Below, piece after piece: positions 1 through 56,394 of a stretch of DNA of 64,000 nt. The translations under genes and the position numbers were made by a program. Source of the DNA: a marine bacterium AO1-C (GTDB lineage: Bacteria > Bacteroidota > Bacteroidia > Cytophagales > Microscillaceae); contig MLAY01000008.1 of assembly GCA_001890965.1 (NCBI GenBank), forward strand, positions 552,341-616,340, given 5' to 3'. Below the pieces are notes generated by a model. It saw nothing but the letters and a program-made list of their open reading frames with translations, did no database searches and was not told the origin of the DNA. How positions within the stretch are numbered: position 1 is the stretch's first letter; every line of letters begins with the position of its first letter.

Positions 1-404
1 TTTGAGCCTGTTCATTTCTATATGTCAAAAATAATTTTGTCACTGAACTATCCTATATGTTTTATTTGTTCCACATAATTTTCTAATTATATCGCAATTA
101 TAGCCATAAAGTTTCATAAACCCAATATTTAATATCCAAAAAAACAAAAAAGTTTTTTTATTTAAATCTTATATAAATAGTAATTGGGGCGTTTTTGGGA
201 ACCAATGAGAAAGCTAAAAATCGCTCTTTGAACTAATTCCTTAGGCAATTTTGATGCAGCTATGAGGTTTTAAAAATCACTCAAAAACCTCTTGATTTAG
301 TGCAATCAACCTTTTTGATATAAGCTGGATTCAATAGAAAATAAACGAGTAAAAAACTCACATTTTCTTACATGGGGCACTATTCTGTATTTGTGTACCA
401 ACAA

Positions 405-437
405 AAAAACCCGTGATTTTCACGGGTTTTTGATACT
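405..437. terminator. Bidirectional rho-independent terminator hairpin (cccgtga-ttt-tcacggg) with an A-run upstream and a T-run downstream
   Basis: Sequence aaaaaaacccgtgattttcacgggttttt. It lies just downstream of the stop of the minus-strand aminotransferase gene at 539. Confidence 0.5.
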
Positions 438-538
438 CAAAAAAGTTATTATTTTTTTTAATTTAAATTCTATCACTTGGTGTTGGTGCTTTGCATCCAC
501 CCTCGACCAACAAGTAATAAAATATATATCTAAAATGC

Positions 539-5172: not shown

Positions 5173-7914
5173 CTACTTTCCTTTTTTACCCAACGCTTTG
5201 AAAGAATACGCCAGGGATACCATAAAGTAGCGTCCAATGGTTTGTACTCTTTGCTCCTGGACAAAGTTTAGACTACTGTTTCGCGTAATACCTTGGTTAC
5301 GATCCAATATATCAAAGGCAATCAATTTGAGTTGAAGGCGGTTTTGTATAAACGATTTTGCCAATGATGCACGTAGCAAAGGTACAATTTGAGCTCCACC
5401 AGTAAAAGCTTCTCCTGTAAATACCGATTGGGTAAAATTCACGCCCAATTCCCAGGTTTTACCCAAATCCAGGTCTCCTTCTACGAAATAATCTTCCTGC
5501 ATAAAAGTTCGGTCTAAATCGTTGGCATCAGAGTACGCTGTAAAGTTCTGAGAAAAAGTAGCACCAGCTTTTATGTCCATCTTTTTCTTTCTGAAGTTTT
5601 CCAAAGTAAACCTGATAGAGTTTGTCCGACGATTTATTGTATTTTCTACACTATTTACAAACACAATGCCTTGGCCCAGAGAAGCATTCCCATTCACGCG
5701 TATCTTGGCGGCCATCCAGCGTAAAGGCGTACTGTATGACAAATATCCATTGATGTTAGCATCAAAATGTACGTTTACTGGTTGGCTAAACTGATTCAAC
5801 AAGCGATCATTGATTACCTTATTGGTGATTTTATTCTGGGTGTAGCTTCCGGTAAAGCCTCCAAAAATACTGGTAAATGAAAACTGATCAAACGAGTAAT
5901 AATTTAGGTTTACACGATGAACAAATTCTGCATCAAGTTCTGGATTTCCCTGAAAAATATTCGTAGGGTTGCTGTTATCTACCACTGGGCGTAACTGATC
6001 CATACTGGGCGCATTGATATTGGTACTATAGTTTATGTTTAGGCCTTTGGAACCTGCCATACGCCAACGTAAACGCACACTGGGCAACACATTCATAAAC
6101 ACTCGATCGATGCGGGTTTCAGAGGTAGTAATGACCCCGTTCAAAGTAGAATACTGGGCACTGGCTCCAATGGTAAGATTGAGGTTATTTTTATTGTAGA
6201 GAAAGTTCACGATTCCTCGATCAAAGGTAAAGTCGTTGGTATAACGATTACTTAGAGAGTCGATAAAAGTTTCAGGGGTAACTCCAGCATTAAAGAAATC
6301 TTTGAAAGAATTGTTGTTAAAGTTATTGCGCTGATACTTTACTTCTACAAATCTACCTCTACCCAAAGGCTCTATGAAAGACAATTGCACATCGTAGTTT
6401 AACTGTCGATTGTTGAGCGGTTGGCGTTGATTGGTAACCAATGATGGTAAAAGTATGCCCGCAGATTGTTCGTTATTCAAGCGATCTACGCTTTCCAGAT
6501 TTTGTGTGCCTACTTGCCCCTGAAATACCAACGTACGACCTCGTTTGCCAAAACGTTTGCGGAATAGCAAGCGAGTATTCACGCCCAGTTCCTGACTATT
6601 TGCCTGGGTATTGCTATTGGCTTGACTCACGGAAGCATCATTCAGGCGGTTGTCTGTTATGTTTGCCTCATCGTTGTTTCCTTCGTTGTACAATAAATCT
6701 ACATAAAAACGTAAACGAGTTTTTTTACCAAAATTATGATCCAGACGCATATTGGCGCGATGGTTCCAATTGCGTAAAGTTTGATCGCGGGTAGTATTGG
6801 TAAAAAAGGTGCTGGAATCTACAAAGGTTTCCCGGTCGGTTACCTGGTTGATGTCGTTGCCAATGAAGTTGTAAAAGTAGTTGGCATGTAAACGAGTTTT
6901 CTTGCTTATATCACGATTGAAGTTTACCCCTAACACTTGGGTACTGGCCAGGGCCTGGCTACTATTCAAGCGTAACAAAGCACTCAACCCGCTGGTTCCT
7001 CCGCTTCTGATATTACTGATAGCTCCCTGGCTAATGTTCTGAAAACCACCCACAAACCCTACATAATCGACAAACGAGAAGGGCTGTTCATTGATGTTAT
7101 TGGCTCCCCCCAACAAAGATATTTGGGTTTTGGAGTCAAAGCGGTTGAAGTTAAATTTTCCATTGTAGCGATCGTCGGTACCGTACCCAGCAGATACATT
7201 TCCGAAAAATCCTCCTTTACGGTTTTTCTTCAAAACCAGGTTGATGGTTTTCTCCCGGTCGCCATCGTCTACGCCCGTAAATTTTGACATTTCAGATTTG
7301 TCATCAAATACCTGTACCTTGTCTATAGCATCAGCTGGGAGGTTTTTGGTAGCTATTTTAGGGTCTTTACCAAAAAACTCTTTACCATCTACCAATACTT
7401 TTTTCACCTCTTTTCCCTGGGCTTTGACCTTCCCATCTTTGTCTACCTCTACCCCAGGCAATTGTTTGAGTAGCTTTTCTACATTGGCGTTGGGTTTGGT
7501 TCGAAAGGCCTTGGAGTTGTATTCTATGGTGTCTTTCTTGATAACAATAGGCACTCGGTCCTCTTTTACCACAATCTCCTTCAGCATCTTTTTGTCTTCC
7601 TCGAGCTTTACATCTCCCAAAGATAGTTCTTTACCTTTTTCTAAGGTTAAAGGCTTATTGAGCGGTTTGAATCCAGTAAAAGATACCTGTAACAAGTATT
7701 TTCCGGCTTTGGCACCTTTTAGTACAAACTGACCTTTACCATCGGCAATGGCGAACTTGGTCAGGATAGAATCAGGTAAACTCATCAGCAACACTGATGC
7801 TCCTGGCAAGGCTTTGCCTTCTGGGTCGGTAATCTTACCATTTACATTTTGAGCTAAAGCAGCGGTATTCCAGCCTATGAGGGCTAATAGTATATAAAAT
7901 GTTAGCTTTTTCAT
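5173..7914 (-). CDS. Outer membrane beta-barrel protein with an N-terminal carboxypeptidase-regulatory-like (CarbD_reg) domain (TonB-dependent-receptor-like, plugless family)
   Basis: 913 aa with signal peptide. N-terminal NGKITDPEGKALPGASV motif, long beta-rich C-terminus ending in an aromatic residue. Paralog of 44025..46802. Confidence 0.75.
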   Translation of the reverse strand: MKKLTFYILLALIGWNTAALAQNVNGKITDPEGKALPGASVLLMSLPDSILTKFAIADGKGQFVLKGAKAGKYLLQVSFTGFKPLNKPLTLEKGKELSLGDVKLEEDKKMLKEIVVKEDRVPIVIKKDTIEYNSKAFRTKPNANVEKLLKQLPGVEVDKDGKVKAQGKEVKKVLVDGKEFFGKDPKIATKNLPADAIDKVQVFDDKSEMSKFTGVDDGDREKTINLVLKKNRKGGFFGNVSAGYGTDDRYNGKFNFNRFDSKTQISLLGGANNINEQPFSFVDYVGFVGGFQNISQGAISNIRSGGTSGLSALLRLNSSQALASTQVLGVNFNRDISKKTRLHANYFYNFIGNDINQVTDRETFVDSSTFFTNTTRDQTLRNWNHRANMRLDHNFGKKTRLRFYVDLLYNEGNNDEANITDNRLNDASVSQANSNTQANSQELGVNTRLLFRKRFGKRGRTLVFQGQVGTQNLESVDRLNNEQSAGILLPSLVTNQRQPLNNRQLNYDVQLSFIEPLGRGRFVEVKYQRNNFNNNSFKDFFNAGVTPETFIDSLSNRYTNDFTFDRGIVNFLYNKNNLNLTIGASAQYSTLNGVITTSETRIDRVFMNVLPSVRLRWRMAGSKGLNINYSTNINAPSMDQLRPVVDNSNPTNIFQGNPELDAEFVHRVNLNYYSFDQFSFTSIFGGFTGSYTQNKITNKVINDRLLNQFSQPVNVHFDANINGYLSYSTPLRWMAAKIRVNGNASLGQGIVFVNSVENTINRRTNSIRFTLENFRKKKMDIKAGATFSQNFTAYSDANDLDRTFMQEDYFVEGDLDLGKTWELGVNFTQSVFTGEAFTGGAQIVPLLRASLAKSFIQNRLQLKLIAFDILDRNQGITRNSSLNFVQEQRVQTIGRYFMVSLAYSFKALGKKGK

Positions 7915-8056: not shown

Positions 8057-8806
8057 TTAGAATTTTCCTTTGCTTCTGCGTTGTTCTCTCATTTCCTGCA
8101 TCTTTTCCTTGACAATCTTGTTGAATTGCTTGCGGGTCACTTTTTTTCCTTTTTTAGGTGCTTTAATAGCGTCAGCTTCTAGTTTCTTAAATTCTATTTT
8201 AGAAGCAGTGGTGGTGGCTTCAAATTTCCCGTTGCCTTTTTCACTCTTTGAGGATGATTTCATCTCAAGGATCAATCCTGGTAATTGGCCATAGCCTTGA
8301 GGCCCAGAAGGAACCGGAATTTGCATCGTAAACCAAGCTTCCAGCGTGCGTTTCTCTTCTTCAAGGGTGGCTTTACGGCAATCATATCCTTGTATTTTTT
8401 TGGTTTCAGCACTGAGCTTCCACTTATGTTGTTTGGGCTTGTCTTTGATCAAAAATTTACGTCCTAAAAATGAGCGCTGTTCTACTATTTCTTGCTTGCT
8501 GGTATTGTAATACATTTGGTTATCATTTCTACCAAAACTCATAAAGCCTCGTCTTTCTTTTGGATCAACTTCTTTGTTGGGATCTTCATAGGTTTTGTAC
8601 ATGGTTTCACTGGCATTGAACAACAATTGATGTGTGATTACTCGATTTTGCATCTTTTCGAGTTGTTCTTTAGAAATCATTCTCTTAAACCTTTCTGGAA
8701 TCTGCATTTTCATTTTGGTGGCATAGATTATTCGCCCTTCATTGTTTTGAGCCTGCGACATGAAAGGTATCCAGATAAGGACTAGTAGAAAAGTTAGTTT
8801 TTTCAT
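8057..8806 (-). CDS. GLPGLI family protein (Bacteroidota-specific, TIGR01200-like)
   Basis: 249 aa with signal peptide. GYGQLPGLILEMK motif. Immediately upstream of the outer membrane protein gene on the same strand. Paralog of 46920..47801. Confidence 0.7.
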   Translation of the reverse strand: MKKLTFLLVLIWIPFMSQAQNNEGRIIYATKMKMQIPERFKRMISKEQLEKMQNRVITHQLLFNASETMYKTYEDPNKEVDPKERRGFMSFGRNDNQMYYNTSKQEIVEQRSFLGRKFLIKDKPKQHKWKLSAETKKIQGYDCRKATLEEEKRTLEAWFTMQIPVPSGPQGYGQLPGLILEMKSSSKSEKGNGKFEATTTASKIEFKKLEADAIKAPKKGKKVTRKQFNKIVKEKMQEMREQRRSKGKF

Positions 8807-11020: not shown

Positions 11021-11551
11021 TTGTTCAATATTTCAAATTATTCAATTCCTACCAAAATGCTTAATAGCATAAGGGTAATTCACATGAGAAATTCTGTAAT
11101 AGTTTTTGTCCTGGTTTTATTGCTCGCCGCCTGTGAATCTGGCCCACCAAACCATATCCCAGATGATGAGTTTAGAAAGGTTTTCCATAAAGACGCTAGA
11201 AATATGGGGCAATACTTCGTGCCTACTGATGCTGAACTTCTAAAGTTTGAAGTTGAGTTCAAAAGTTATCTGGAAAGCTTGACCAAATCAGGAAAGGGTT
11301 ATAAGATCAATATCTTGGAGAAAACTCATCCCCTCGAATATGGTCTTGGATGGTTCAAAAGGCGATATTTTGGACGAATCGAAAACGATTATAAACGTAA
11401 GTTGTTTGTTGAATTTGTGGCCATCCGATGTGGGGGCTCTGATGAATGGCAACAAATTGACTATCCTTCAGACTCAAATCGCGCCTGTTGGTGGAATGTA
11501 ATATACGATGTAGATAATAGTAAAATTGAAAAAATAGATTACCCTTGGTAG
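11021..11551 (+). CDS. Hypothetical lipoprotein
   Basis: Signal peptide with lipobox (LLLAACESG). The true start is probably the internal M at about 11057. Confidence 0.45.
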   Translation: MFNISNYSIPTKMLNSIRVIHMRNSVIVFVLVLLLAACESGPPNHIPDDEFRKVFHKDARNMGQYFVPTDAELLKFEVEFKSYLESLTKSGKGYKINILEKTHPLEYGLGWFKRRYFGRIENDYKRKLFVEFVAIRCGGSDEWQQIDYPSDSNRACWWNVIYDVDNSKIEKIDYPW

Positions 11552-11791
11552 AAACTTTCACCTTTTTTGATGTTTGAGCAGAATGACACCAAAAAAGCTT
11601 GGCCAATAAAGGTTAGTGGTGACATTTCACTTAAACACCTTCAACCTCTGAAATTATTGCGTTGATTAAACTTAGACGACTAAAGAAACCATAGTTTTAT
11701 TCTTTCCAATACTCCTCGCAAGTTTTGTTTTTTTGCCAGAATATACCCAAATATTTGTATCTTACTAGACAAATAAAATGATCTGACTAAA

Positions 11792-13504
11792 ATGAAAAAA
11801 CAAACACCTTCTAACAAAAAGACGGGTTCTAAAACAGTGATTCAAACCAAAGCTGCAAGCAGTTCGAAAATAGCTTCTTTAAAGCCACCTGCCTATGGCA
11901 TTCACGCTGTTGATAACTTTCAATCAACACCTTTACAAGCTAAATCAAATGTTTCTCCCTTTCCTAACCAAACTTTAGAAAGGCGAGAAAAACCCATAGG
12001 CAAAGAGCTCCCTAATAACCTGAAAACCAAGATGGAACATTTGGGCGGAGTAGACCTCTCTGATGTGAAAGTCAACTATAATTCTGCCAACCCTCAAAAA
12101 ATAGGGGCCTTGGCTTATACTAAGGGGAACCAGATTGAGATTGGCCCTGGCCAGGAAAAACATCTTCCTCATGAGACCTGGCATGCAGTGCAACAAAAAC
12201 AAGGACGAGTACAACCTACCATACAAGCCAAAGGATTAGCCGTCAACAATGACTCTGTTTTGGAAAAAGAAGCAGATTTGATGGGCAACAGAGTAAACAC
12301 TCAATTTGCAAACAAAACAAGCCCTGGTATTGGTGGAACAAAAAATAGTAAAAACCAGGCGGGGGTTGTGCAGAAAAGGGCAGCAGACCCCAAAAACCAA
12401 GCTGGATTTAGAGTAGGAGATTCTGTCGAAACCTATTGGGGAACCTGGACAATAAGAGCAGAGTCAACCCCCACTGACAATCAATATTATGGCATAAAAG
12501 TCGCCCTTGAGTTTTTACCTAATGAAAAAGTAGACGCGACTAAAATTGAAATGGTACAAGTCATGCGTGCCAGAGAAGGAGGAGAAATAAGTCATTTGGA
12601 GGCTAAAAAGAACCTACCAACCAAAGAAGAGAGAAAAGCAGGAAAAGTATTTGGTGGAGATTATCGCAAAAAACACAGTATAACTAAAAAAGATGCAATA
12701 GTAATTGACCCTAAAACGGGTGAAACTGACGAGGGGACTCACATTGACGCTTGGTGGAATAACAATAATCCCATTTTTCGTTTGAAAGGCAAAGCCAATA
12801 CTCTACAGGAAGGAACACCAGAAACGGATGAACTTAAGGGTGGATCACAAATTTACAAAAATACGCCAGGCAAACGTATTGCTAAGAATCCAACTGATGA
12901 TAGGGCTTATTTGGTTGATGGGCCAGAAATTACCAGCGGTGTCATCACCAAAAAAGGCCTTAAGAATACCTATCATAAATTAGAAACAACTGCTCTGGCA
13001 ATATCTGGCAACCAAAAAGGAACCTATTATGGTTCAGTACAATGGGGGTGGGGATTAGATGCCAATGGTAAATATTATACAGTTCCTTTGAAAGTAGTAT
13101 CAGAGGGATTTGTAAGTCCTTCATTTCTTAAAGCTGCCGAAATTTGGAACAAATCAAAAGCGAATATTGATGGCAAAGAGATAGATACCGTTGATTTACC
13201 GATTTTAAAAAATATTCAAGTGTTGAATAGTGACAAAGAAGTCACTTTATTTGAAAGCCTTAGAACAAATTCTGCTACCCCAACCAAACTTCCAAAAGGT
13301 ACACGTTTTATTATAGTAAAACCCGCCACGATGTTTGCAAAATATAAAGACAAAAAATATAAAAAGAGAAAAGACATTGACGCCAATCGTATGGTAATTA
13401 AAGTTGTAGATGGGCCGCATATCAATAAACAAGGCTATATAAGTTCAACAGTATCTATGTTAAACGAAAGCACCACCTGGCGTAAACAACAACAAAAAAA
13501 GTGA
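11792..13504 (+). CDS. DUF4157 domain protein (zincin-like HExxH toxin/effector-associated N-terminal domain) with an ~400-aa C-terminal region of unknown function
   Basis: N-terminal [26 protein letters not shown]...[17 protein letters not shown]...[12 protein letters not shown] matches the DUF4157 signature (LP..L+..ME..G.DLS.V+VH....A...GA.A.T.G..I.F..GQ...HEL.HVVQQ). Confidence 0.75.
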
Positions 13505-13509
13505 TTTTA

Positions 13510-14718
13510 ATGAGATGTAGAATATGGATATGGAGTTGCCTTTTTCAACTTTTCATCCTAAACACTTATGCGCAGTCCCCCGAAGAACGCTTAGCCAAAT
13601 ACATAATTAATCGTGAAGCGAGAAACTTTCAATTCCCGGCAGATAGTTTTTGGCGTGACTATCAAGTTAGACCAGAGTTGATTCAAATTATTACACACCC
13701 CAATATCAGCGATAGCGTGAAGCTTGTCGTGGACAGACTTATTTCTGCCCGGTTGCATGGTATAAACTACTACAGTGTAAAGGCAAAGCAGTCATTGGCC
13801 CACATGTATGTCAAGGCAATCGCTCTTGCCTGCAACAACCCTACTCAGTCTATCATTGATACCAATATCGTGAGGTACGGCGAACCAGGCACCCCCAACT
13901 ATCGGCTTATACAAATAGGAGAAATAGCCATCCCAGCTCTACTCTCTTTATTAGAGAATCGTTGTATTTTTAATACTTATGCAAATGACCTCTTTGCTGC
14001 TCATAAACTTAGAGTCAGGGATCAGGCTGCTTTGCTAATTGCTCGAATCAAAAACATCCCTCTAACTCTAAATAAATACAAATCTCCCGTAAAACGCGAC
14101 CGGCTCATTGAAAATTTAAAGAAAAGAGTGCTTCAAGAACCTTACACCATTCCTACCAAGGACCTATTGATTGACTTCATTAAAAAAAAGGGCCTAAAGC
14201 AACACCTTCCCTCGAAAGTCAAAGATAGCTTATGGAGTCATCATCGTACAGAATTAATAGAAATCATTACCACTCCTAACATTGATGATAGAATAAAGCT
14301 TCGAGTAGATTGGATTCTGTTCTATCGCCAACGTGATCTTTCTATCTTTAATTTGGCCACCAAAAAAGCCTTGGCTCGCTTATATGCTAAAGCTTTGCGT
14401 AAAAGCTGTTATGCCCCTGATTGGTTTTATTATAGTAATGCATTCTGGGCATATATTACCTTTAATGAATTAGGAAGAATGCCAGGACATAGAATTATGC
14501 AGTTGGGGGATTTAATTGTCCCTGAATTAGCGCTTTTACTGGATGACAATTGTTTTAAATTTGGTCGGCGTGATCGCCGTTATTACTTGAGGATCAAAGA
14601 TTTTGCAGCTTTTTTTATTGCCAGAATCAAAAAAATCTCTTTACCCTTACACAAACACATTACCCCTCAAAAACGAGATGAATTGATTGAGAACTTGAAA
14701 AAAGAACTGGATAAGTAA
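13510..14718 (+). CDS. Secreted protein built from two ~190-aa tandem HEAT-like repeats
   Basis: Signal peptide (CLFQLFILNTYAQ). Clear internal duplication (ELIQIITHPNISDSVKLVVD / ELIEIITTPNIDDRIKLRVD; RIKNIPLTLNKYKSPVKRDRLIENLKK / RIKKISLPLHKHITPQKRDELIENLKK). IPALLSLLEN / VPELALLLDD are HEAT/PBS-lyase-like. Start overlaps the upstream stop. Confidence 0.6.
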   Translation: MRCRIWIWSCLFQLFILNTYAQSPEERLAKYIINREARNFQFPADSFWRDYQVRPELIQIITHPNISDSVKLVVDRLISARLHGINYYSVKAKQSLAHMYVKAIALACNNPTQSIIDTNIVRYGEPGTPNYRLIQIGEIAIPALLSLLENRCIFNTYANDLFAAHKLRVRDQAALLIARIKNIPLTLNKYKSPVKRDRLIENLKKRVLQEPYTIPTKDLLIDFIKKKGLKQHLPSKVKDSLWSHHRTELIEIITTPNIDDRIKLRVDWILFYRQRDLSIFNLATKKALARLYAKALRKSCYAPDWFYYSNAFWAYITFNELGRMPGHRIMQLGDLIVPELALLLDDNCFKFGRRDRRYYLRIKDFAAFFIARIKKISLPLHKHITPQKRDELIENLKKELDK

Positions 14719-14721: not shown

Positions 14722-15276
14722 TTACTCTTCCCCTGGAAACTCCAAATACTTTACAGGTACCTGATCGGTGAGCCATACTTTGTTTTCGGATAAGAAAAAT
14801 TGGTGGCCATCGGCATGCATTTCTGCGGCATTTACAATCAAAATAATGGGTTTGCCATGGCGTGAACCCACACTTTTGGCAGTGGTTTCATCAGCCGAAA
14901 GGTGTACATGGTCTCGGTTTCGTTTTTTCAGACCTTGCGCACGAATGCTATTCACAAAACGGGTGGCTGTACCATGATATAGTACTTCAGGAGGTTTGAT
15001 GGCCTCATAGCCTAGTTTTACTCCAATAGAGTGCCCTTGACTAGCTCGAATGTAGGTTTGATCTTCGTCGAAAGCAAAGCGTTTTTTATCGTTTTCGGCT
15101 ACTACAACCTGCAAATCTTCAAAGGTAATGGGGAAATAATTGTTGGAAAACCGGTCTATCAGCATATCTACTGCTACCCAGCCTTCTTCGTCCATCACTA
15201 GCTCTATAGCCTCAGGGTGATGACGCAACACATAGCTCAATCTTTTACTGATTTTAACCATTTGGTTCTTGTTCAT
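14722..15276 (-). CDS. kptA: RNA 2'-phosphotransferase, Tpt1/KptA family
   Basis: KISKRLSYVLRHHPE ... IRASQGHS ... HGT motifs characteristic of Tpt1/KptA. Confidence 0.8.
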   Translation of the reverse strand: MNKNQMVKISKRLSYVLRHHPEAIELVMDEEGWVAVDMLIDRFSNNYFPITFEDLQVVVAENDKKRFAFDEDQTYIRASQGHSIGVKLGYEAIKPPEVLYHGTATRFVNSIRAQGLKKRNRDHVHLSADETTAKSVGSRHGKPIILIVNAAEMHADGHQFFLSENKVWLTDQVPVKYLEFPGEE

Positions 15277-15511
15277 GCTTTTGCTAATTTGGGTTACACC
15301 TGTTTTAATGGTTACATTGTTTGATCGTCCAATAGTTTATAATATATGGTAAAACTCTTGAACCTTATAGCCATTTAGCAATCGTTTTGGAGATCACTTA
15401 ATTCAGGTAATATGATTGATTTAAAGCGAATTATTGTTTTCTAATTATTCTTCAGAAAACGAAATAAATCTTAGTTGGTTTAATGATTCACCAACTACTA
15501 AAAGCGAAGCA

Positions 15512-16246
15512 ATGAAAATTTACTCAGTAATTAAAAAAGGGGAATTGCACCCGGTATATTGTGAAGATTTTTTGATCAGTACTTATGTAGGCGAAAGTTA
15601 TTATATGGGGGCTGTGTTGGATGGTTGTTCGTCGGGAGAAGACTCTCACTTTGCTTCGGCTTTGATGGGGAAGTTGCTCAAAAAAATTAGTAAAGATATT
15701 TCTCAACAAGAGCGTTTGTTGTTTGAAAACCCTCCACTGAGTGCCGAAAAAATAGCGGTCAAAATGCTCAAAAAGATGTTTTGGGAGTTACGTGATGCTC
15801 GTAAACACCTGGGATTGACCAATGTAGAAATGTTGTCTACGTTGATCTTGATGGTGTATGATGAAAATGAAAAACAGGCATTTATCATTGCCATTGGCGA
15901 TGGTATGGTAGCTATAGATGGCAAAGTCACCGAAATTGACCAGGATAATATGCCCGATTATATGGCTTACCACCTAAATCATAGTTTCGACCAGTGGTTT
16001 CAGAAACAAGAGCATATTTATCGGGTTGATCAGCCTAAGGAAATTAGTATTGCTACGGATGGAGTAGATACTTTTCGAACCCATAAAACAGATAATCCAG
16101 CTGATTTTAGTCCGATTGATTTTTTATTACTGGACAATTCACTGGAAAACACCCAGAACATGCTTACCCGTAAAGCCAATATTTTGCATAAAAAATACGG
16201 CTATTTGCCTGCTGATGATGTAAGTGTTATTCGGGTCAAGTTTTAA
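15512..16246 (+). CDS. PP2C-family (PP2C_2-like) serine/threonine phosphatase
   Basis: HPVYCEDF (CQD-like) N-terminal motif, VLDGCSSGEDSHFAS, IAIGDGMV and ATDGV aspartate-containing motifs. ATG at 15512 is preferred over the upstream TTG. Confidence 0.65.
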   Translation: MKIYSVIKKGELHPVYCEDFLISTYVGESYYMGAVLDGCSSGEDSHFASALMGKLLKKISKDISQQERLLFENPPLSAEKIAVKMLKKMFWELRDARKHLGLTNVEMLSTLILMVYDENEKQAFIIAIGDGMVAIDGKVTEIDQDNMPDYMAYHLNHSFDQWFQKQEHIYRVDQPKEISIATDGVDTFRTHKTDNPADFSPIDFLLLDNSLENTQNMLTRKANILHKKYGYLPADDVSVIRVKF

Positions 16247-16378
16247 GCAGCTCATCATATATTGTTCAATTGTTTTATTGCTGATTCCTTCAACCAAGCG
16301 CAGCACAGCGGGGTTTACCAAGTATTACAGACTTAGCGAAACAGTCTCAAAAAAACTCAACAATTTAATCACCTAACA

Positions 16379-18142
16379 ATGAAAGCAATTACTGAAAACG
16401 GCGACACGATTACGATTGACGACAAATATGAAATTAAACGAGGTGGTGAGGGTAAAATTCTGACCATTCCTGAACGCCCCAACCAAGTAGCTAAGATTTA
16501 CCTCAACCCCAATGTAACCCATTTGGGACAAGCCCAAAAAGATGCGTTGAGTGCACTGGATAACACCCACTTTGTAAAGCCATTGGAATTAATTTACCCT
16601 AAAAAAGGTAAAAAAGCGAATAAGCAAAAAGGGCTTTTAGGGTTCACAATGGAGTATTTGCCTCAGGATTTTGTGCCGTTGGCAGCTTTGTTTAAAAAAA
16701 ACTATTGTGCTGCCAATCAGATAGATACTGCTTTTAAAAATGAGTTGGTAAAGCAGCTACCTGCAATTGTAGACCACGCCCACAATCAAGACATTATCAT
16801 TGGAGATTTGAGCGGCTACAACATCATGGTAAATCCTCAGGGTGACTTGAAGTTTATTGATGTAGACGCTTACGAAACCACCATTCACACCCATACTGGA
16901 GTATTGTTGGATGAAATTCGAGATTATTTGTACAATGGGGTAGTGAGCAAAGAAAGTGATTATTTTGCGCTGGCAGTTGTCATGTTCAATCTGCTTACCC
17001 ACTTGCACCCTTTCAAGGGTATTCATAAGCTGTATAAAGTAATGGCAGAGCGCATGGTGCGCAAACTTCCAGTTTTTGTAAACGATCCCGACTTAATCAT
17101 TCCTAAATGCTATACACCTTTGACTGATGCCGCGCTTCAACAACAATTTGAACTGCTATTTGCCGAAGGCAAACGTTTTTTGATCATTGTGGGGCAACCT
17201 GTAGTACCTAGCGCTAAGCCTCAACCTACACCAGCACCTACTATTACAGCAGGAAATTTATCTATCAAAGAAATTTATCAACCTGTAGCTGGAGAATACA
17301 TCTTACGCGCTACCTTCCAACAAAATCAAGGCTTGATAGAAACCAACCGCCAGGCGTTGGTATACGATTCCAGCAATCAGGGCTATGTGACTCTTAAACA
17401 TACGATCACTCCCAATCAATTGCCACCTGAACTACAACAGGGAGAACTTCGCTGGTTTACTGGAGAAAAAAACGTATTGGCTTTACAGAATGGCGCTTTG
17501 TATCACTTTTTGGGCAATGGTGACTTCCAAAAAATTAGTAACTTCCAACTATCAGACAAGGGGCGTTATCATTTGGTTGATAATATCTTGGTGGTGTTGG
17601 ATGGGGAGTATATGCGTTGGTTGTTTTTAGATGATATTAATCGGGATTTTATTCGCATTGAACAAACTCCAGTGTTTGTACCAGGATTTGATGTATTCAA
17701 TGGTTTGATCCAAAACACAGGTGGGGTACAATATGTTTTTTACTGCTCTGGCAAGCATATCTCTACTGTCAAATCCCCGTTGTCGCTTATAGAATCGGTA
17801 CATATTCAGGGTAATGTAGGCTGGGTGAGCTATGATGAACAGCAAAACGGAGAGATTACTCGCAAATATGAGTACTTTAGCATAGATGGTCTGCAAATGA
17901 AACTCAGTGGAGAACCAGTATTTGGCCAGCGCCAATTTGCCTATAAAGCTACTTCGGCTAGTGGGGGGATTGTGTTTGAACCCGATGATGATAAAATGCG
18001 GGTGCGTCGCAGTCAGGATTTTAAGGTATTGCAGGAGTTTGATTGTAGCGTGCTAAGTACCGAAAGTGCCTTAGTGAGTACACAGGCGGGGATTGTAGCA
18101 TATGAACGAGATTTTTGTTATTTATTGAATAGCCAAAAGTGA
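16379..18142 (+). CDS. Atypical Hanks-type Ser/Thr protein kinase-like protein with a C-terminal beta-rich domain of unknown function
   Basis: Glycine-rich loop RGGEGKI, VAKIY lysine, catalytic-loop-like HNQDIIIGDLSGYNIMV, DVDAY (DFG-like), SDYFALAVVMFNLLT (subdomain IX-like). A PAPT-rich linker follows, then ~330 aa of unassigned sequence. Confidence 0.6.
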   Translation: MKAITENGDTITIDDKYEIKRGGEGKILTIPERPNQVAKIYLNPNVTHLGQAQKDALSALDNTHFVKPLELIYPKKGKKANKQKGLLGFTMEYLPQDFVPLAALFKKNYCAANQIDTAFKNELVKQLPAIVDHAHNQDIIIGDLSGYNIMVNPQGDLKFIDVDAYETTIHTHTGVLLDEIRDYLYNGVVSKESDYFALAVVMFNLLTHLHPFKGIHKLYKVMAERMVRKLPVFVNDPDLIIPKCYTPLTDAALQQQFELLFAEGKRFLIIVGQPVVPSAKPQPTPAPTITAGNLSIKEIYQPVAGEYILRATFQQNQGLIETNRQALVYDSSNQGYVTLKHTITPNQLPPELQQGELRWFTGEKNVLALQNGALYHFLGNGDFQKISNFQLSDKGRYHLVDNILVVLDGEYMRWLFLDDINRDFIRIEQTPVFVPGFDVFNGLIQNTGGVQYVFYCSGKHISTVKSPLSLIESVHIQGNVGWVSYDEQQNGEITRKYEYFSIDGLQMKLSGEPVFGQRQFAYKATSASGGIVFEPDDDKMRVRRSQDFKVLQEFDCSVLSTESALVSTQAGIVAYERDFCYLLNSQK

Positions 18143-19521: not shown

Positions 19522-20697
19522 TTAGAGTTTTGCATTGATTTTATCAAGCAACTCTTTGGCATATTTAATATTCCCTTTTTCTTGCTTGGCCAAAACAATG
19601 GATTCTTCAACTACTTTTTTGGCTTCTGCATAACGCTCCAACTTAAACAGCAACTGAGCTTTAACATATACATTGCCATAGATTTTCCTCAGTTCTATAG
19701 AACGTTTTATCCAGTCTAAAGCTTTTTCTAAACGCTTAGTATCCAGCTTATCTTTGCTGAAAGCATAGCTATAAGCAGTCATTGCAAAATTCATAGGGTT
19801 TTCACAGTAATTGTCCAGATAACGGCAATCATAATGAAAACTTTTCTCCTTGTCACTTCCATAAAACAAGTACTCAGCTTTTGCAATGTATTTATCAGCT
19901 GATTTTCCCAATATTTTGCTCAGGTTCTTTTTAAAGGCGGTAAGTTGGTCTTTATCCTTAGATTTACTGATGCTTCGCATTTCAGGCTCTATTCCTTTTT
20001 CAATAAATTTATTTACCTCTCGTTTGTTCTTTGCCAATTTCACAAACTTGTCCTGATTGTTCAGCACATAGCCAAAAGCTTCTTGTGAATATTTGGTCAC
20101 AAATTCTTTGATAAATTCCCAGCCTTCAGCAGTAGCCCAATTATTTTTGCCCAATTGGTTTAAATACGTTTCGGTGGGTTTGGTAAAGTCTTGACGAGCA
20201 CCTTTTGCTGCTATAATGTATTTCTTAAGAAAAGCCTTATCTTTTTCACCTTTCTCAAAGCGGCGTTGCATGGTGTAAAACTGGTTTTCAGGGTTCAATG
20301 CATTATTGGCTTGTTTCAATAATTTTTTAGCTGGATAAGCACCTAAGGTTTTATGCACGATTTCGCCTTGAGGATTAAAGTACACCAATGTTGGAAAAGC
20401 ACGTATTTCGTATTTTTTTGCAAAATCTACACCTTCTCCTTTTTCCATGTCCATTTTAAAAGATACAAAGTGTTTGTTGAAAAAATCGCCTACTTTTTTT
20501 TGAGGAAATATTTTCTTGGACTGCCATTTACAAGGGCCACACCAGGTAGTGTAGGCATCCACAAAAATGTGTTTGTTTTCGGCTTTGGCCTTGGCTTTTA
20601 TTTCAGCCCAAGTGCCTTTTTCAAATTTGATTCCTTGAGCAATGGTAAAGTTTGCAAACAAGCCCAGCAGTAAAAGGATATTTAATATTTTTTTCAT
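19522..20697 (-). CDS. Thioredoxin-family protein (secreted, CGPC active site) with a C-terminal alpha-helical domain; paralog 1 of 4
   Basis: Signal peptide. AYTTWCGPCKWQSKK thioredoxin motif. ~395 aa. Tandem with three paralogs. Confidence 0.75.
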   Translation of the reverse strand: MKKILNILLLLGLFANFTIAQGIKFEKGTWAEIKAKAKAENKHIFVDAYTTWCGPCKWQSKKIFPQKKVGDFFNKHFVSFKMDMEKGEGVDFAKKYEIRAFPTLVYFNPQGEIVHKTLGAYPAKKLLKQANNALNPENQFYTMQRRFEKGEKDKAFLKKYIIAAKGARQDFTKPTETYLNQLGKNNWATAEGWEFIKEFVTKYSQEAFGYVLNNQDKFVKLAKNKREVNKFIEKGIEPEMRSISKSKDKDQLTAFKKNLSKILGKSADKYIAKAEYLFYGSDKEKSFHYDCRYLDNYCENPMNFAMTAYSYAFSKDKLDTKRLEKALDWIKRSIELRKIYGNVYVKAQLLFKLERYAEAKKVVEESIVLAKQEKGNIKYAKELLDKINAKL

Positions 20698-20871
20698 TTA
20701 TGTGGTAGTTTAAGTTTAAAACACAACAATTACTATAAATATAGTCATATGACTATTAAACTAGTAATAAGTAGAAAAGTTTCATGTCCAATATACTTAT
20801 TAACAACACATAAATAAGTTTAACCACAGGTTATTTGGATGATTTAAAAGATGTATTTACTCAACAAAGCA

Positions 20872-22068
20872 TTACAATTTGGCCTCAATTTCTTCTAATT
20901 GTTTTTGAGCTTTTTGCACAAACGATTTTACTTCCTTTTTGGCCAGGGTTACTACTTCTTGAGCCACAGGATAAGCTTGTTTATAGCGTTTCATTTTTAG
21001 CAACAAGCCCACCTTTGCATTGAGATTATCTACATTACGCTTTAGCTTGATAGCTCGATTTATCCAATGTAGGGCACTGTTTAAATGTTCCAAATCAGTA
21101 TATTTATTAGTGTACATCCAAGCAGCATATAGTAGGGCTATTTCGTCGTTGGTATGATCTAAAAATTTACGGGCATATTTTAAGGATTTTTTTTCATCGG
21201 GCAGGTAATATAAATACTCCTTTCGAGCAATGGCTTCTTTTGCTTCTTCAGGAGGAAAAACCATTTTTACTTTCTTCCGGTAATCAATCAATGCTTGTTC
21301 TCTTTCTGAATGAGGCACATTCATCGCATCTTCGTTCAGTGATTTGATTAGGTATTGGCTAACAATCTTTTTACCCAAAACTTGAGCAAAACTAGCTCGG
21401 TTGTCAAGAATGTAGTTAAACTCCTTTGAAGTAGTTCTCTTCAAATAAGCTTCTATTATTTTCCAGTTTTCTGGTTTCGCCCAGTTTGCTTTTTCCTGTT
21501 GAGCCAAGTACGCACTCAATGGTTTATCGTAGGGTTCATTTGCCAGGCTCAATGCTTTGATATAACGCTTTAGAAAATCGTTTTCTCTAGCTCCGGCTTT
21601 ATATCGCCTTTGTTGAGCCATCAATTGGGTTTTGGGGTCTAGGGCCTGACGAGCTGCATCTATAATTTTAGCTGCTCCGCCAGAGCCTTTGACAATATGC
21701 ACCAGATTTCCCTGGGGGTCAAAATAAAGCAAGGTAGGATATGATGTCACTTGGTACTTTTTGGCAAACGCAACGCCTTCTCCTTTTTCCATATCCAATT
21801 CGTAACTCACCAAGTGTTGATTATAAACATCTCCTACCTCTTTCAAAGGAAAGACCTTCTTCCTCAGGTATTTGCAAGGGCCACACCAGGTAGTATAAGC
21901 ATCTACAAATATGAATTTATTCTCTTTTTTGGCTTTCGTCTGAATTTCGCTCCAGGTACCTTTTTCAAATTTGATCCCTTGTCCAAGTACTACACTACTC
22001 ACCCAGGCAATAAGAGTGACCACACATAAAATCGTTCTCATATAATTTAAAAGTTTGATTGGTTTCAC
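20872..22068 (-). CDS. Thioredoxin-family protein; paralog 2 of 4 (most divergent)
   Basis: AYTTWCGPCKYLRKK motif. The start may be the internal M at 22041. No terminator copy downstream, unlike the other three. Confidence 0.7.
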   Translation of the reverse strand: MKPIKLLNYMRTILCVVTLIAWVSSVVLGQGIKFEKGTWSEIQTKAKKENKFIFVDAYTTWCGPCKYLRKKVFPLKEVGDVYNQHLVSYELDMEKGEGVAFAKKYQVTSYPTLLYFDPQGNLVHIVKGSGGAAKIIDAARQALDPKTQLMAQQRRYKAGARENDFLKRYIKALSLANEPYDKPLSAYLAQQEKANWAKPENWKIIEAYLKRTTSKEFNYILDNRASFAQVLGKKIVSQYLIKSLNEDAMNVPHSEREQALIDYRKKVKMVFPPEEAKEAIARKEYLYYLPDEKKSLKYARKFLDHTNDEIALLYAAWMYTNKYTDLEHLNSALHWINRAIKLKRNVDNLNAKVGLLLKMKRYKQAYPVAQEVVTLAKKEVKSFVQKAQKQLEEIEAKL

Positions 22069-22121
22069 ATAAAATACGTATTGTATTGACTAGACGCGAC
22101 TTATTTGTGTAAAGCAAACCA

Positions 22122-22158
22122 TCAAAAAAAGCCTATTTCTCGTAAGAAACAGGCCCTT
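22122..22158 (-). terminator. Terminator hairpin copy (gcctatttc-tcgtaa-gaaacaggc) downstream of thioredoxin paralog 3
   Basis: Same hairpin-plus-A-run unit as at 19465-19500, with one mismatch in the stem. Confidence 0.5.
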
Positions 22159-22178
22159 AAATATTGGTTGATTAAGTA

Positions 22179-23366
22179 TTATAACTTCGCATTGATTTTC
22201 TTTAGCAAGGCCTGTGCTCCTCCTGGACTTCCCCCTATTTTTTTGGACAAAGCAATAGATTCTTCCGCTACTTTTTTGGCTTCCTGATAACGCTTCAATT
22301 TATATAATAAGCGCGCTTGGGTACTGGTATTATACCAAGTCTTTTTTAGCTTCACCGATTTTTCGGCCCACACCAATGCTTTTTCCAGTTTTTGAGGATC
22401 ATTCGTAATTAAACTATACCTGGCCGCCATACCGCCTAAATCCTGAGAACCATTGCAATAATTATCATAATACTTGCAGACATACCGAAAAGCTTTTTCT
22501 TTATCTTTGTCAAGATAAAAGAACCAAAAATCTGCTTTAGTCAAGAGCTTTTCAACGTCTCTCTTTTGAACAAATACTTTTCTCAATCTTCGCTTCAATG
22601 AATCTAATTGGGCCTCACTTTTATCTTTAGAAAACGCTACTTTTTTCATGTCCTCTTCTAACACCTTTTCGATATAATTTTTCACGTTCTCTTTTTTCTT
22701 AGCCACTTGCTCAAACTTTGCTTGGTTTTTTAAGACATATTCAAAAGCTACTGCTGAAGGTTTTTCCACATATTGACTTATAAATTCCCAACCTTTGGTG
22801 GTGGCCCATTTGTCTTTACCCAGTTGGTTCAAGTATAGTGTAACGGGTTCAGTAATATCCTCGAAGGCAGTTTTCAAAGTCTTGATGTATTTCTCCAGGA
22901 ACTCATTGCTTTTTTCTCCTTTCTCAAAACGGCGTTGTAAAGTAAAAACCTGAGTTTCAGGGTTCAAGGCGTCTGCAGTCAGTTTCAGTAATATGTCAGC
23001 TGGCGCAGCCCCTCCAATTTTATGAACTATTTGGCCTTGGGGGCTAAAATATAGCAAGGTAGGATATGCACTTATCTTGTATTTTTTAGCAAAAGCAGGC
23101 CCTTCTCCCTTTTCTGTATTCACCTTATAAGACACAAAATGCTTGTTGAAAAAATCGCCTACTTTTTTTTGAGGAAAGACTTTTTTGGATTGCCACTGAC
23201 AGGGGCCACACCAAACAGTGTAGGCATCTACAAAAATGTACTTGTTTTCAGCTTTGGCTTTGGCTTTTATTTCCGTCCAGGTGCCTTTTTCAAACTTAAT
23301 CCCTTGAGCAATCGTGGTATTGGCAAGCCAACCTATCAGTATTAATGTATAGAATGTAACTTTCAT
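22179..23366 (-). CDS. Thioredoxin-family protein; paralog 3 of 4
   Basis: AYTVWCGPCQWQSKK motif. Same architecture as the others. Confidence 0.75.
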   Translation of the reverse strand: MKVTFYTLILIGWLANTTIAQGIKFEKGTWTEIKAKAKAENKYIFVDAYTVWCGPCQWQSKKVFPQKKVGDFFNKHFVSYKVNTEKGEGPAFAKKYKISAYPTLLYFSPQGQIVHKIGGAAPADILLKLTADALNPETQVFTLQRRFEKGEKSNEFLEKYIKTLKTAFEDITEPVTLYLNQLGKDKWATTKGWEFISQYVEKPSAVAFEYVLKNQAKFEQVAKKKENVKNYIEKVLEEDMKKVAFSKDKSEAQLDSLKRRLRKVFVQKRDVEKLLTKADFWFFYLDKDKEKAFRYVCKYYDNYCNGSQDLGGMAARYSLITNDPQKLEKALVWAEKSVKLKKTWYNTSTQARLLYKLKRYQEAKKVAEESIALSKKIGGSPGGAQALLKKINAKL

Positions 23367-23440
23367 CTTTTGAACAATTTAATTGATAACAACCTACACA
23401 GTTCTATACTTGATGGCTTTAAAAAATGGAGCCGATTTAT

Positions 23441-23475
23441 AAAAAAAGCCTGTCTCTCGTAAGAAACAGGCTCTT
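23441..23475 (-). terminator. Terminator hairpin copy (gcctgtctctc-gtaa-gaaacaggc) downstream of thioredoxin paralog 4
   Basis: Hairpin 23448-23471 with an aaaaaaa run on the plus strand. Confidence 0.55.
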
Positions 23476-23495
23476 AAATCTTGATTGATTAAGTA

Positions 23496-24668
23496 TTATA
23501 ATTTCGCATTGATTTTTTCTAACAATGCTTTGGTTTCTTTGGCATTTTGCTTGGCTTCTTTGGCCAAAGCTATAGATTCTTCAGCAACCTTTTTGGCTTC
23601 TTTGTAACGCTTAAGCTTAAATAACAAGTGGGCTTGAGTATCGGTATTGAACGATTTTTTCATCAATTTTACTGATTGTTGTGCCCAGCCTAAAGCCTTT
23701 TCTAAACGCTCAGTATCATTGTACTTTTTGTAATAGCCCCACGCAATGCTGTTAAACTCATAGGCATTGTCACAGTACTTATCAAAGTACTTGCAGGCAT
23801 ATTGCATGGCTTTTTCTTTGTCTCCAGCATAAAACATATATTCGGCCTTGGCAATGTGCTTGTCGGCATCTTTCCCAAATACATCCTTTAATTTCTTTTT
23901 GAAAGTAGTCAGCTGTTTTTTGTCTTTGGAACGAGCTACTCCGCGCATATCCATCATCAACACACGAGTGATATACTTCTCTACTTTTTCTTTGCTTTCA
24001 GCTGCTTTTTCAAACTTAGCCTGGTTTTTCATTACATACTCAAAAGCCTCTGCAGAAGACTTACGTACATACTTGCTGATAAACTTCCAACCTTCGGCAG
24101 TAGCCCATTTGTCTTTGCCCAATTGCGCCAGATACATGTCAGCAGGCTTGCTGAAATCCTCATAGGCACCTTCTAAAGCAGCAATATATTTTTGCAGAAA
24201 CTCATTACTTTTTTCTCCTTTTTCAAAACGACGCTTCAAAGTAAATACCTGGGTCTCGGGGTTTAGCGCATTGGCTGCAGCTTTTAGTAGTACCTTAGCA
24301 GGGTAGGCACCTACGGTTTTATGCACCATTTCGCCTTGGGGGTTAAAATATACCAAAGTAGGATAAGCTCTTACTTTGTATTTTTTTGCAAAGTCAACTC
24401 CTTCTCCTTTTTCCATATCCATTTTAAAAGAGATATAGTTTTTATTGAAAAAGTCACCTACTTCTTTTTGAGGGAATACTTTTTTGGATTGCCACTTACA
24501 AGGGCCACACCAGGTAGTATAGGCATCTACAAAAATGTGCTTGTTTTCGGCTTTGGCTTTAGCCTTAATTTCAGACCAGGAGCCTTTCTGAAAGGCAATT
24601 CCTTGAGCACCTGCGGTAAAGGCGGCTAGTAGTAAAAAAGCAAAGAGGGGTAAAAATTTATGCTTCAT
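23496..24668 (-). CDS. Thioredoxin-family protein; paralog 4 of 4
   Basis: AYTTWCGPCKWQSKK motif. ATG at 24668 (MKHKFLPLFAFLLLAAF, a signal peptide) is preferred over the longer ORF start at 24731. Confidence 0.75.
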   Translation of the reverse strand: MKHKFLPLFAFLLLAAFTAGAQGIAFQKGSWSEIKAKAKAENKHIFVDAYTTWCGPCKWQSKKVFPQKEVGDFFNKNYISFKMDMEKGEGVDFAKKYKVRAYPTLVYFNPQGEMVHKTVGAYPAKVLLKAAANALNPETQVFTLKRRFEKGEKSNEFLQKYIAALEGAYEDFSKPADMYLAQLGKDKWATAEGWKFISKYVRKSSAEAFEYVMKNQAKFEKAAESKEKVEKYITRVLMMDMRGVARSKDKKQLTTFKKKLKDVFGKDADKHIAKAEYMFYAGDKEKAMQYACKYFDKYCDNAYEFNSIAWGYYKKYNDTERLEKALGWAQQSVKLMKKSFNTDTQAHLLFKLKRYKEAKKVAEESIALAKEAKQNAKETKALLEKINAKL

Positions 24669-24866
24669 TGTGTATTGTAGTTTAAGGGTGATTGATTTAT
24701 GTTGAGTTAAATTAATGATTTTTTGCCTCAATGATGTTCTTCCAGCCCAAATAGTTGCTTTCTTCGCAAGAAATTATGCTTTCTTTAGTATTTAGCCTGC
24801 TTTTTTTTCTTAACCTTTTACCTTTGCATCCGGTTATTTAAGCAATCAAAATAAGTATACTGGTTT

Positions 24867-31333: not shown

Positions 31334-31358
31334 TTGGTAAAGAATTAAGTCATCATTT

Positions 31359-32615: not shown

Positions 32616-32699
32616 ATTTCAGAGAATGAATTGGCAATGAATAAAAAATGATCACCCCCTTTGATAGCAAAGGAGGTGATTGAAAGCAACGCTTAATGT

Positions 32700-53558: not shown

Positions 53559-53604
53559 AGTATCTTCTCTAAATGATTAATTAAAAAAATCAGTGTGTTA
53601 GGTT

Positions 53605-56391: not shown

Positions 56392-56394
56392 AAA

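Follow-up and report, generated by a model that had tools for sequence, protein, structure and literature searches.

A DUF4157-led protein and its tightly coupled exported partner in marine bacterium AO1-C: a probable orphan toxin-immunity pair of the contractile-injection type

Toxins of the PVC secretory system were described by Zhang et al. (2012, PMC3482391) as combining an N-terminal DUF4157 releasing peptidase with swappable C-terminal toxins, and Microscilla marina was noted for its many PVC-metallopeptidase toxins. The C-terminal domain is unannotated in 983 of 1130 predicted DUF4157 toxins of injection systems (Danov et al., PMC11297309), and Geller et al. speak of an "intriguing mystery" in that antibacterial toxins of the extracellular contractile injection systems (eCIS) seem to be without immunity genes. 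Within Bacteroidota, Cgo1 and Cgo2 are cargo of AlgoCIS, the eCIS of Algoriphagus machipongonensis (PMC8894135; preprint 10.64898/2026.05.27.728243). The disordered N-terminal domain of AlgoCIS cargo is reported to be a loading signal (10.64898/2026.05.27.728243) and Cgo1, of 498 aa and with a C-terminal domain predicted to be a metalloprotease, to be toxic in E. coli (PMC8894135); the genes for both proteins lie within the eCIS cluster, and neither is known from these accounts to have an immunity partner. In the archaeon Halogeometricum borinquense, which has a T6SS-like CIS, DUF4157 proteins are secreted in a CIS-dependent manner, are toxic when expressed and are neutralized by the gene immediately downstream, with two such pairs lying away from the CIS cluster (PMC11566945). 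In the T6SS-associated VgrG2b/PA0261 (Tpe-Tpi) system the zincin is instead a C-terminal toxin fused to the VgrG spike and is itself targeted by the immunity protein.

We analysed a 64-kb stretch of DNA (the window) that contains two adjacent genes, A and B (Table 1). The gene A product shares with Cgo1 and Cgo2 the three-part layout of a disordered N-terminus, DUF4157 and a variable C-terminal effector, is similar in size to Cgo1 and comes from the same phylum. The likeness is one of layout. Gene A has a beta-rich mid domain where Cgo1 has its predicted metalloprotease; further, gene A has a tightly coupled partner, and any eCIS gene that the window might contain would be over 11 kb away. In arrangement the pair resembles the Halogeometricum pairs remote from their CIS cluster, and it differs from VgrG2b in having the zincin at the N-terminus and a partner gene that follows a different domain. 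The arrangement is familiar, while the putative toxin domain and putative protective protein match no family in the databases searched.

Table 1. Features of genes A and B, in positions of the window
Feature	Position	Strand	Basis
Gene A (BKI52_25130, 'marine bacterium AO1-C'), 570 aa, DUF4157-led toxin/effector protein	11792..13504	+	ORF, ATG start
A, residues 1-67: disordered, K/S/T/Q-rich N-terminal region, candidate CIS loading sequence	11792..11992	+	pLDDT <50
A, residues ~70-172: DUF4157/eCIS_core/'PVC-metallopeptidase' zincin, HExxH (H127, E128, H131) and E158	11999..12307	+	
A, residues 173-204: low-confidence linker with VVQKR and invariant Q194	12308..12403	+	AF2 pLDDT; alignment
A, residues 205-470: 'mid' domain, presumed toxin domain, ~265 aa, beta-rich	12404..13201	+	
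A, residues 471-560: SH3b-like C-terminal domain	13202..13471	+	
Gene B (BKI52_25135), 402 aa, exported protein, presumed immunity protein	13510..14718	+	ORF; alternative GTG start 13501
B, signal peptide, MRCRIWIWSCLFQLFILNTYA followed by Q, Sec, SPase I type	13510..13572	+	read from sequence
B, domain copy 1, residues ~24-212	13579..14145	+	family HMM i-E=5e-39
B, domain copy 2, residues ~213-402	14146..14715	+	family HMM i-E=5e-41

Both ORFs are present as given in a preliminary description of this DNA. That description gave position 13501 as an alternative start of gene B, where a GTG would overlap the TGA stop of gene A (13502-13504) as GTGA; this start is possible, but the NCBI annotation (402 aa) and the sequence favour the ATG, which leaves a gap of 5 nt. 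The two genes are tightly coupled under either start. A sigma-70 promoter match at 11766-11793 was discarded, as it overlaps the start codon of gene A and the host belongs to Bacteroidota. One database protein is 100% identical to the gene A product, the pair lies in an ordinary chromosomal context syntenic with a close relative, and a search for literature on strain AO1-C found nothing relevant. Scanning of the ORFs of at least 150 aa in the window gave no match to eCIS, T6SS or Rhs families, in keeping with the earlier reading that no such gene is visible there.

The AF2 model of the gene A product has a mean pLDDT of 78.8. The disorder of residues 1-67 is read from AF2 confidence; no Sec signal is present in this N-terminus, and a hydrophobic stretch occurs in only 2 of 62 toxin N-termini of the family. 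By analogy with AlgoCIS cargo, this region is a candidate for a CIS loading signal. The adjoining zincin matches Pfam PF13699 (DUF4157, now eCIS_core) over residues 73-138 (E=2.8e-8, 34.2 bits against a gathering threshold of 22 bits). Its HETWH (H127-E128-x-x-H131) is a true HExxH zinc-binding motif, and H127, E128, H131, Q134, Q135 and E158 are invariant in 43 full-length homologs. The domain and its motif are thereby borne out; as to the extent, first put at the N-terminal ~150 aa, the zincin is folded over about residues 70-172, and the disordered segment ahead of it lies outside the domain. The linker that follows, with pLDDT below 50 at residues 174-189 and 197-203, contains VVQKR, an instance of an h-x-Q-[RML] motif that sits just ahead of the toxin module whatever the type of carrier (53/63 DUF4157 carriers and most carriers without DUF4157).

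Clustered at 50% identity, the mid-domain family comprises 585 clusters, patchily distributed over at least 8 phyla. Its invariant residues are Q256, D319, G360, D376, E398, W418, G419 and W452, and its motifs are VDAxxIGLTQ, TDEGxxID, NNPIY and FETTALAxxGxQxGTYYGSVxWGW. We found no match for it in Pfam, NCBIfam or PDB, and no fold or sequence match to known toxins or enzymes; PDB sequence searches with the gene A product and with the mid domain, using single sequences and profiles, returned nothing meaningful, and NCBIfam, PADLOC and PHROGs had zero matches for the products of genes A and B. The C-terminal region, which the preliminary description considered possibly novel, is a conserved family without known annotation in the Pfam, NCBIfam and PDB searches, and it is from genomic context that we presume the mid domain to be a toxin. 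The all-beta Ntox3 of Microscilla and Haliangium (PMC3482391) might be the same domain when compared by description, but its conserved D, R, H and C show no obvious agreement with the invariant Q, D, D, E, W and W of the mid domain. The SH3b-like domain that ends the protein is predicted to be, possibly, a peptidoglycan- or envelope-binding module.

The gene B product carries an evident signal peptide, as had been noted, followed by an internal repeat (E=3e-34) that reflects tandem duplication of a ~190-aa domain. Copy 2 can be aligned with single-copy homologs; the copies in the window are divergent and lack the YEGSxEATxGN segment of the B family. The AF2 model, for which the prediction drew on 17 sequences, is all-alpha (pLDDT 80.9, pTM 0.72). 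The preliminary description proposed two ~190-aa HEAT-like repeats; the tandem duplication is upheld, the predicted fold is all-alpha, and in sequence none of 50 B-family members matched HEAT/ARM Pfam models at E<=0.1. The window's own gene B product is unmatched in Pfam and NCBIfam, its PDB sequence search with the single sequence and a profile gave nothing meaningful, and a B-family profile search of a 5.8-billion-protein database recovered at least 10 proteins. Sec or lipoprotein signals, detected as a hydrophobic N-terminal extension, are present in 34/54 B homologs (63%) versus 0/30 and 2/62 in control sets, the latter being the toxin N-termini. A secretion signal had been thought unusual for an immunity protein; it is, on the contrary, the rule for immunity to periplasm-acting effectors, as in VgrG2b-PA0261, where the immunity protein needs its own signal peptide to protect (PMC6899460). 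The signal is absent from the other 20 homologs (~37%), including those of the monoderm Actinomycetota, which fits poorly with a purely periplasmic target. Signal-peptide status was not significantly related to eCIS adjacency (4/11 vs 29/42, p=0.08).

To define the relationship between the two genes we used 80 loci from at least 8 phyla, in which 78 mid-domain genes could be evaluated for linkage. A comparison of these loci revealed features that mark polymorphic toxins: 1) The downstream partner tracks the toxin domain. For 54/78 mid-domain genes the next gene downstream is a one-copy B homolog, present on the same strand after 44/60 ORFs with both the mid domain and DUF4157 and after 10/18 mid-domain ORFs without DUF4157, but after 0/32 DUF4157 ORFs without the mid domain. 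Tight linkage thus follows the mid domain and not DUF4157. In the Mantel comparison the distances of the mid domain and B correlate with r=0.60 (partial r=0.55 given DUF4157), and those of DUF4157 and the mid domain with r=0.28, all these correlations being confounded by shared phylogeny. 2) A decayed toxin is found with a retained immunity gene. At one Microscilla marina locus (L004) the toxin is reduced to a 134-aa piece of its C-terminus (E=5e-20) and the two-copy B next to it is intact; in the loci compared, every B gene found came right after a mid-domain gene or such a remnant. 3) One C-terminal domain is displayed on several N-terminal carriers. The mid domain is carried by 62 proteins with DUF4157 and 18 others: some carriers are ~400-aa proteins whose N-termini are of other kinds, a 2538-aa FG-GAP/Big_13 protein (L066) ends in the domain and still has the B gene next downstream, and a 1642-aa DUF4157-calpain protein (L069) also contains it. 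No B was detectable downstream of 24/78 mid-domain genes, and the six toxins followed by another kind of partner group together in a mid-domain subclade of their own. A third conserved gene, 'C', encoding a CxxCxxCC motif, follows B in 30 loci, and DUF4157 toxin genes stand in tandem arrays at many loci. Whereas many PVC toxins lack immunity genes and none is given for Ntox3 (PMC3482391), ~70% of mid-domain loci have an immunity-like partner. The suggestion that B is the cognate partner of A is therefore strengthened across phyla by this linkage, the opposite of the missing co-conservation that would have spoken against it.

The preliminary description had also asked whether homologs adjoin injection-system genes. 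In 16/80 homologous loci eCIS core genes (Pvc15-like AAA ATPase, CIS tape measure, Pvc16_N, sheath, tube and spike) are found within 10 kb, the AAA ATPase gene often immediately upstream of the toxin gene, and this links the mid-domain family to eCIS. As delineated by Geller 2021 and Danov 2024, eCIS-associated toxins (EATs) are encoded no more than about ten genes away from an eCIS operon; they begin with a disordered, hydrophilic loading sequence, may or may not have DUF4157, and end in an effector domain that varies. The gene A product has this architecture, and in the 64-kb window gene A is not within that distance of such an operon; about 12% of EATs are encoded far from the eCIS operon (Danov, PMC11297309). 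Since the scanned ORFs of the window include no recognizable eCIS, T6SS or Rhs member, delivery of the gene A product by a CIS stands as a proposal.

We accordingly weighed other roles for the two proteins. Were the DUF4157 zincin itself the toxic activity, as in VgrG2b/Tpe1, with the mid and SH3-like domains only targeting the envelope and B inhibiting the peptidase, B should accompany DUF4157; instead it is never found after DUF4157 genes without the mid domain, follows over half of the mid-domain genes without DUF4157, and has distances that follow the mid domain better than DUF4157. Moreover, known toxic zincins are C-terminal rather than N-terminal (PMC3482391), and Cgo1 toxicity is independent of the DUF4157 metalloprotease motif (PMC8894135), making this reading very unlikely. 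The proposal that B is a chaperone, adaptor or co-effector that stabilizes, loads or activates protein A draws on the chaperone role proposed for DUF4157-associated genes (PMC11297309), on the B homologs that are cytoplasmic like the toxin, on the immunity protein Tli of E. cloacae that doubles as a toxin activator (PMC10294624), and on gene C, which hints at accessory functions. We nevertheless judge it unlikely: in the window and in most homologs B is exported while A lacks a signal peptide, which places them in different compartments of the producer; the intact B kept beside a decayed toxin fragment suits immunity and not a dedicated chaperone; and the position and tight coupling are those of validated DUF4157 toxin-immunity pairs (PMC11566945).

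The least probable of these alternatives is that no conflict system is involved: A would remodel the cell envelope or act in adhesion, and B would assist or regulate it from the periplasm. The SH3b-like domain is typical of cell-wall enzymes, no homology to toxins could be detected in the mid domain, and the syntenic chromosomal setting in a window free of secretion-machine genes would suit such a role. Against this stand the patchy spread of the family, the shuffling of the mid domain among unrelated N-terminal carriers, the tandem arrays of DUF4157 toxin genes, the eCIS genes adjoining 20% of loci, the module of decayed toxin and intact partner, and the absence of an export signal in A.

Taken together, we regard genes A and B as likely to form an orphan CIS-type (eCIS/'PVC') polymorphic toxin-immunity pair situated away from any injection-machine operon. 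We infer toxicity of A, its delivery by a CIS, a target in the cell envelope and neutralization through direct binding by B. Under this toxin-immunity model, protein A would be made in the cytoplasm without a Sec signal and would presumably leave the cell through a CIS whose genes lie in another part of the genome, or else when the cell lyses. The DUF4157 zincin would be an accessory or releasing peptidase, and the effector would consist of the mid domain followed by the SH3b-like binding domain. The toxin probably acts on the cell envelope; its SH3b-like domain, its acidic and aromatic invariant residues and the export of the immunity protein all point that way. Protein B, which in the AO1-C lineage carries two tandem copies of the ~190-aa domain of its family, a predicted alpha-solenoid, would be sent by Sec to the periplasm, there to bind and neutralize toxin arriving from sibling cells.

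A bolder and doubtful extension of the toxin-immunity model is that the mid domain is a new antibacterial toxin fold and activity directed at an envelope component reachable from both membrane faces, such as a lipid-linked cell-wall precursor, that in B the DUF4157 cargo of contractile injection systems has its first immunity family of broad conservation, and that h-x-Q-[RML] marks a DUF4157 peptidase cleavage or recombination boundary. If true, a target accessible from both faces would account for the exported and cytoplasmic forms of the B family, and contractile-injection machines would deliver envelope-acting antibacterial toxins. The known paradigm is unchanged by the present locus, which offers annotation databases two candidates for new domain families and opens onto ~600 clusters, from at least 8 phyla, that tie one particular toxin domain closely to one particular family of partners. 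It provides a tractable toxin-immunity pair for asking what injection machines do to bacteria, whether DUF4157 processes its own cargo and, since some lineages export their immunity proteins and others keep them in the cytoplasm, where the toxin acts.

Gene A and the gene B that directly follows it, whose ORFs in the preliminary description both proved real, share an already known arrangement, in which an immunity gene lies downstream of a polymorphic toxin of the DUF4157/PVC type. As that description had it, the N-terminal part of A contains DUF4157 (PF13699, presently named eCIS_core in Pfam; residues 73-138, E=2.8e-8, above the cut-off), and its HExxH-like stretch is a true HExxH (HETWH) with H127, E128 and H131 conserved in homologs. 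These residues, along with Q134, Q135 and E158, are invariant across 43 full-length homologs. An AlphaFold2 model of A using 43 homologs as input (mean pLDDT 78.8) resolved five segments (see table), among them a β-rich "mid domain" with invariant Q256, D319, G360, D376, E398, W418, G419 and W452 and motifs including TDEGxxID, NNPIY and FETTALAxxGxQxGTYYGSVxWGW. The suspicion that the C-terminal region could be novel is supported, in that the mid domain matched nothing in Pfam 2025, NCBIfam r20, PADLOC, PHROGs or PDB, where neither the putative immunity family nor the linkage of the two was found. Compared by description alone, the mid domain might be the Ntox3 of Zhang et al. (PMC3482391), an all-beta domain of Microscilla and Haliangium with no immunity protein listed. 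With the mid domain as sole query, a search of 1.84 billion representative clusters at 50% identity recovered 585. In all carrier types (the window and L005-L084) a short h-x-Q-[RML] motif occurs 5-8 residues N-terminal of the mid domain, in many cases following Y[RQ]S.[AG]L.[MI]R..[LV]R; it could represent a recombination boundary or a site cleaved by the zincin. IQAK/LQAK-like motifs are also a repeated feature of the disordered N-terminal regions of DUF4157 proteins, A having VIQTK (16-20) and PLQAK (47-51).

The tight junction noted between the genes holds with either start of B: the TGA of A (13502-13504) is 5 nt from the ATG at 13510 (NCBI call, 402 aa), while the GTG at 13501 gives a 4-nt overlap. 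The N-terminus of B is a Sec-type signal, MRCRIWIWSCLFQLFILNTYA followed by Q. The description of B as two ~190-aa repeats holds (copies 39% identical, E=3e-34); as to their HEAT-like nature, HEAT or ARM models matched none of 50 family members. B itself gave zero matches to Pfam, NCBIfam, PADLOC, PHROGs and PDB sequences.

Features of the window, of protein A and of homologous loci in other genomes (L numbers)
Feature	Location	Strand	Remarks
Gene A	11792-13504	+	570 aa, putative toxin
Gene B	13510-14718	+	putative immunity protein
Disordered segment	A 1-67		hydrophobic signal absent
Folded zincin	A 70-172
Linker	A ~173-204		low confidence
VVQKR	12365-12379; A 192-196		h-x-Q-[RML] instance
Mid domain	A 205-470		beta-rich, confident
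Small beta domain	A 471-560
176-aa ORF	11021-11551	+	no annotation; between HxlR regulator gene and A
KptA/Tpt1 RNA 2'-phosphotransferase	block 14722-18142		convergent with B, stop codons 3 nt apart
PP2C phosphatase	within 14722-18142		after KptA/Tpt1
587-aa atypical Ser/Thr-kinase-like protein	within 14722-18142		weak PADLOC PD-T4-6 and MkoA kinase matches
Four tandem ~395-aa thioredoxin-like paralogs	19522-24731	-	some with C-terminal TPR
Class I lanthipeptide-type cluster	28097-37539	-	next four rows
LanB dehydratase	28097-31372	-
LanC cyclase	31359-32615	-
436-aa ORF	33731-35041	-	no annotation
C39-peptidase ABC exporter	35344-37539	-
PorP/SprF	52575-53558	-	Type IX secretion
CHU_C-tailed cargo protein	53605-56391	-	928 aa; in Type IX stretch 52575-61127
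PorV	60051-61127	-	Type IX secretion
Second DUF4157 protein	L003:12571-13722		Microscilla marina; carries Tox-MPTase3; after mid-domain toxin and B
Third gene (PF03692)	e.g. L012:11547-12173		L006, L008-L012, L015, L018-L024, L026, L027, L034, L038-L041, L046, L049-L051

The source organism, 'marine bacterium AO1-C', is Microscillaceae-like (Bacteroidota). The entire 14722-18142 block is syntenic in the coral-metagenome relative L001, from which the 176-aa ORF upstream of A, in which an internal Met gives a lipoprotein-like start (MRNSVIVFVLVLLLAAC), is absent. A carries no C-terminal sorting domain of the Type IX system.

A word-indexed search yielded just four homologs of B. A distant A homolog in M. 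marina (32% identity) is overlapped at its 3' end by a gene for a one-copy B relative (E=6e-11 and 8e-10 against the two copies). We then used an HMM of the B unit on 80 mid-domain loci from species-representative genomes of Bacteroidota, Cyanobacteria, Proteobacteria, Actinomycetota, Acidobacteriota, Chloroflexota, Gemmatimonadota, Calditrichia and one archaeon. The proposed partnership was supported: B lies directly 3' of 54 of 78 mid-domain genes, with no detectable B downstream of the other 24. A same-strand B directly follows 44/60 genes combining the mid domain with DUF4157 and 10/18 mid-domain genes lacking DUF4157, as against 0/32 DUF4157 genes without the mid domain (34 such ORFs occur in these loci); within the loci examined, B has no other position than right after a mid-domain gene or its remnant. 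Where the mid domain is the C-terminal part of a surface-type FG-GAP/Big_13 protein of 2538 aa, B is still the next gene; the domain also occurs within a DUF4157-calpain protein. Pairwise distances of the mid domain correlate with those of B (r=0.60; partial r 0.55 given DUF4157) and only at r=0.28 with those of DUF4157 in the same polypeptide, which, with shared phylogeny as a confounder of both values, is consistent with the mid domain and B forming a cassette that separates from its carrier by recombination. Upstream of a seemingly orphan two-copy B in M. marina lies a 134-aa ORF, the remnant of a toxin C-terminus (E=5e-20); here the toxin has decayed while its partner has been kept. DUF4157 toxin genes are often arranged in tandem (M. 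marina L003; also L009, L014, L019, L034, L038).

Six mid-domain toxins (L039, L044, L049, L051, L055, L081), which form their own subclade, have a ~350-aa PNGase_F-II_N-like protein replacing B. Two paralogs from the related Porph_ging/PNGase_F-II_N (GLPGLI-type) family are encoded in the window (8057-8806 and 46920-47801, both on the reverse strand), each adjoining an OMP_b-brl_3 outer-membrane protein (5173-7914, 44025-46802). In 30/80 loci a third conserved gene directly after B, or after the toxin, extends the operon; its ~215-aa cytoplasmic product lacks a signal peptide and has a CxxCxxCC/YkgJ-type cysteine-cluster domain. This gene is absent from the window.

No eCIS, T6SS or Rhs family was matched by the scanned ORFs of at least 150 aa in the 64-kb window, which are ordinary chromosomal genes, in agreement with the absence of shell genes first noted. 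When all neighbor genes of the homologous loci were clustered and recurrent clusters annotated, the suggested search for eCIS linkage recovered core genes within 10 kb in 16/80 loci: a Pvc15-like AAA ATPase in 14, often immediately upstream of the toxin, and the CIS tape-measure protein, Pvc16_N, sheath, tube and spike. Starting from a database of 64,756, Geller et al. counted 1,249 genomes with eCIS loci; if the two numbers describe one set of genomes, ~2% of genomes would carry an eCIS, and the 20% adjacency would be a strong enrichment. DUF4157 is the marker domain of eCIS-associated toxins, and Zhang et al. 2012 (PMC3482391) described it, under the name PVC-metallopeptidase, as a releasing peptidase in polymorphic toxins. 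In AlgoCIS, cargo has a disordered N-terminal domain, DUF4157 and a variable C-terminal domain, with the first required for loading and DUF4157 dispensable (PMC8894135; 10.64898/2026.05.27.728243). In a haloarchaeal CIS, DUF4157 proteins are secreted and toxic, and the downstream gene neutralises them (PMC11566945). By analogy, this work supports A being an injection-type toxin.

We propose that A would be a polymorphic toxin of the contractile-injection type whose gene lies apart from its machine, with B as its immunity protein. A lacks a Sec signal, and only 2/62 family N-termini have a hydrophobic stretch. A hydrophobic N-terminal extension is present in 34/54 B homologs (22 of these with a lipobox-like Cys) versus 0/30 in a control family, and B is accordingly predicted to be exported. 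In the producer the two would then occupy different compartments, which favors protection against incoming toxin over a chaperone role for B. The exported immunity protein, together with an SH3b-like module and the acidic and aromatic invariant residues, suggests a cell-envelope target for A. However, the N-terminus leaves no room for a signal peptide in 20/54 B homologs, the three from monoderm Actinomycetota all included, so that a purely periplasmic target does not fit the whole family. As a clean toxin-immunity family, A and B would bear on the reported paucity of immunity genes that accompany eCIS toxins.
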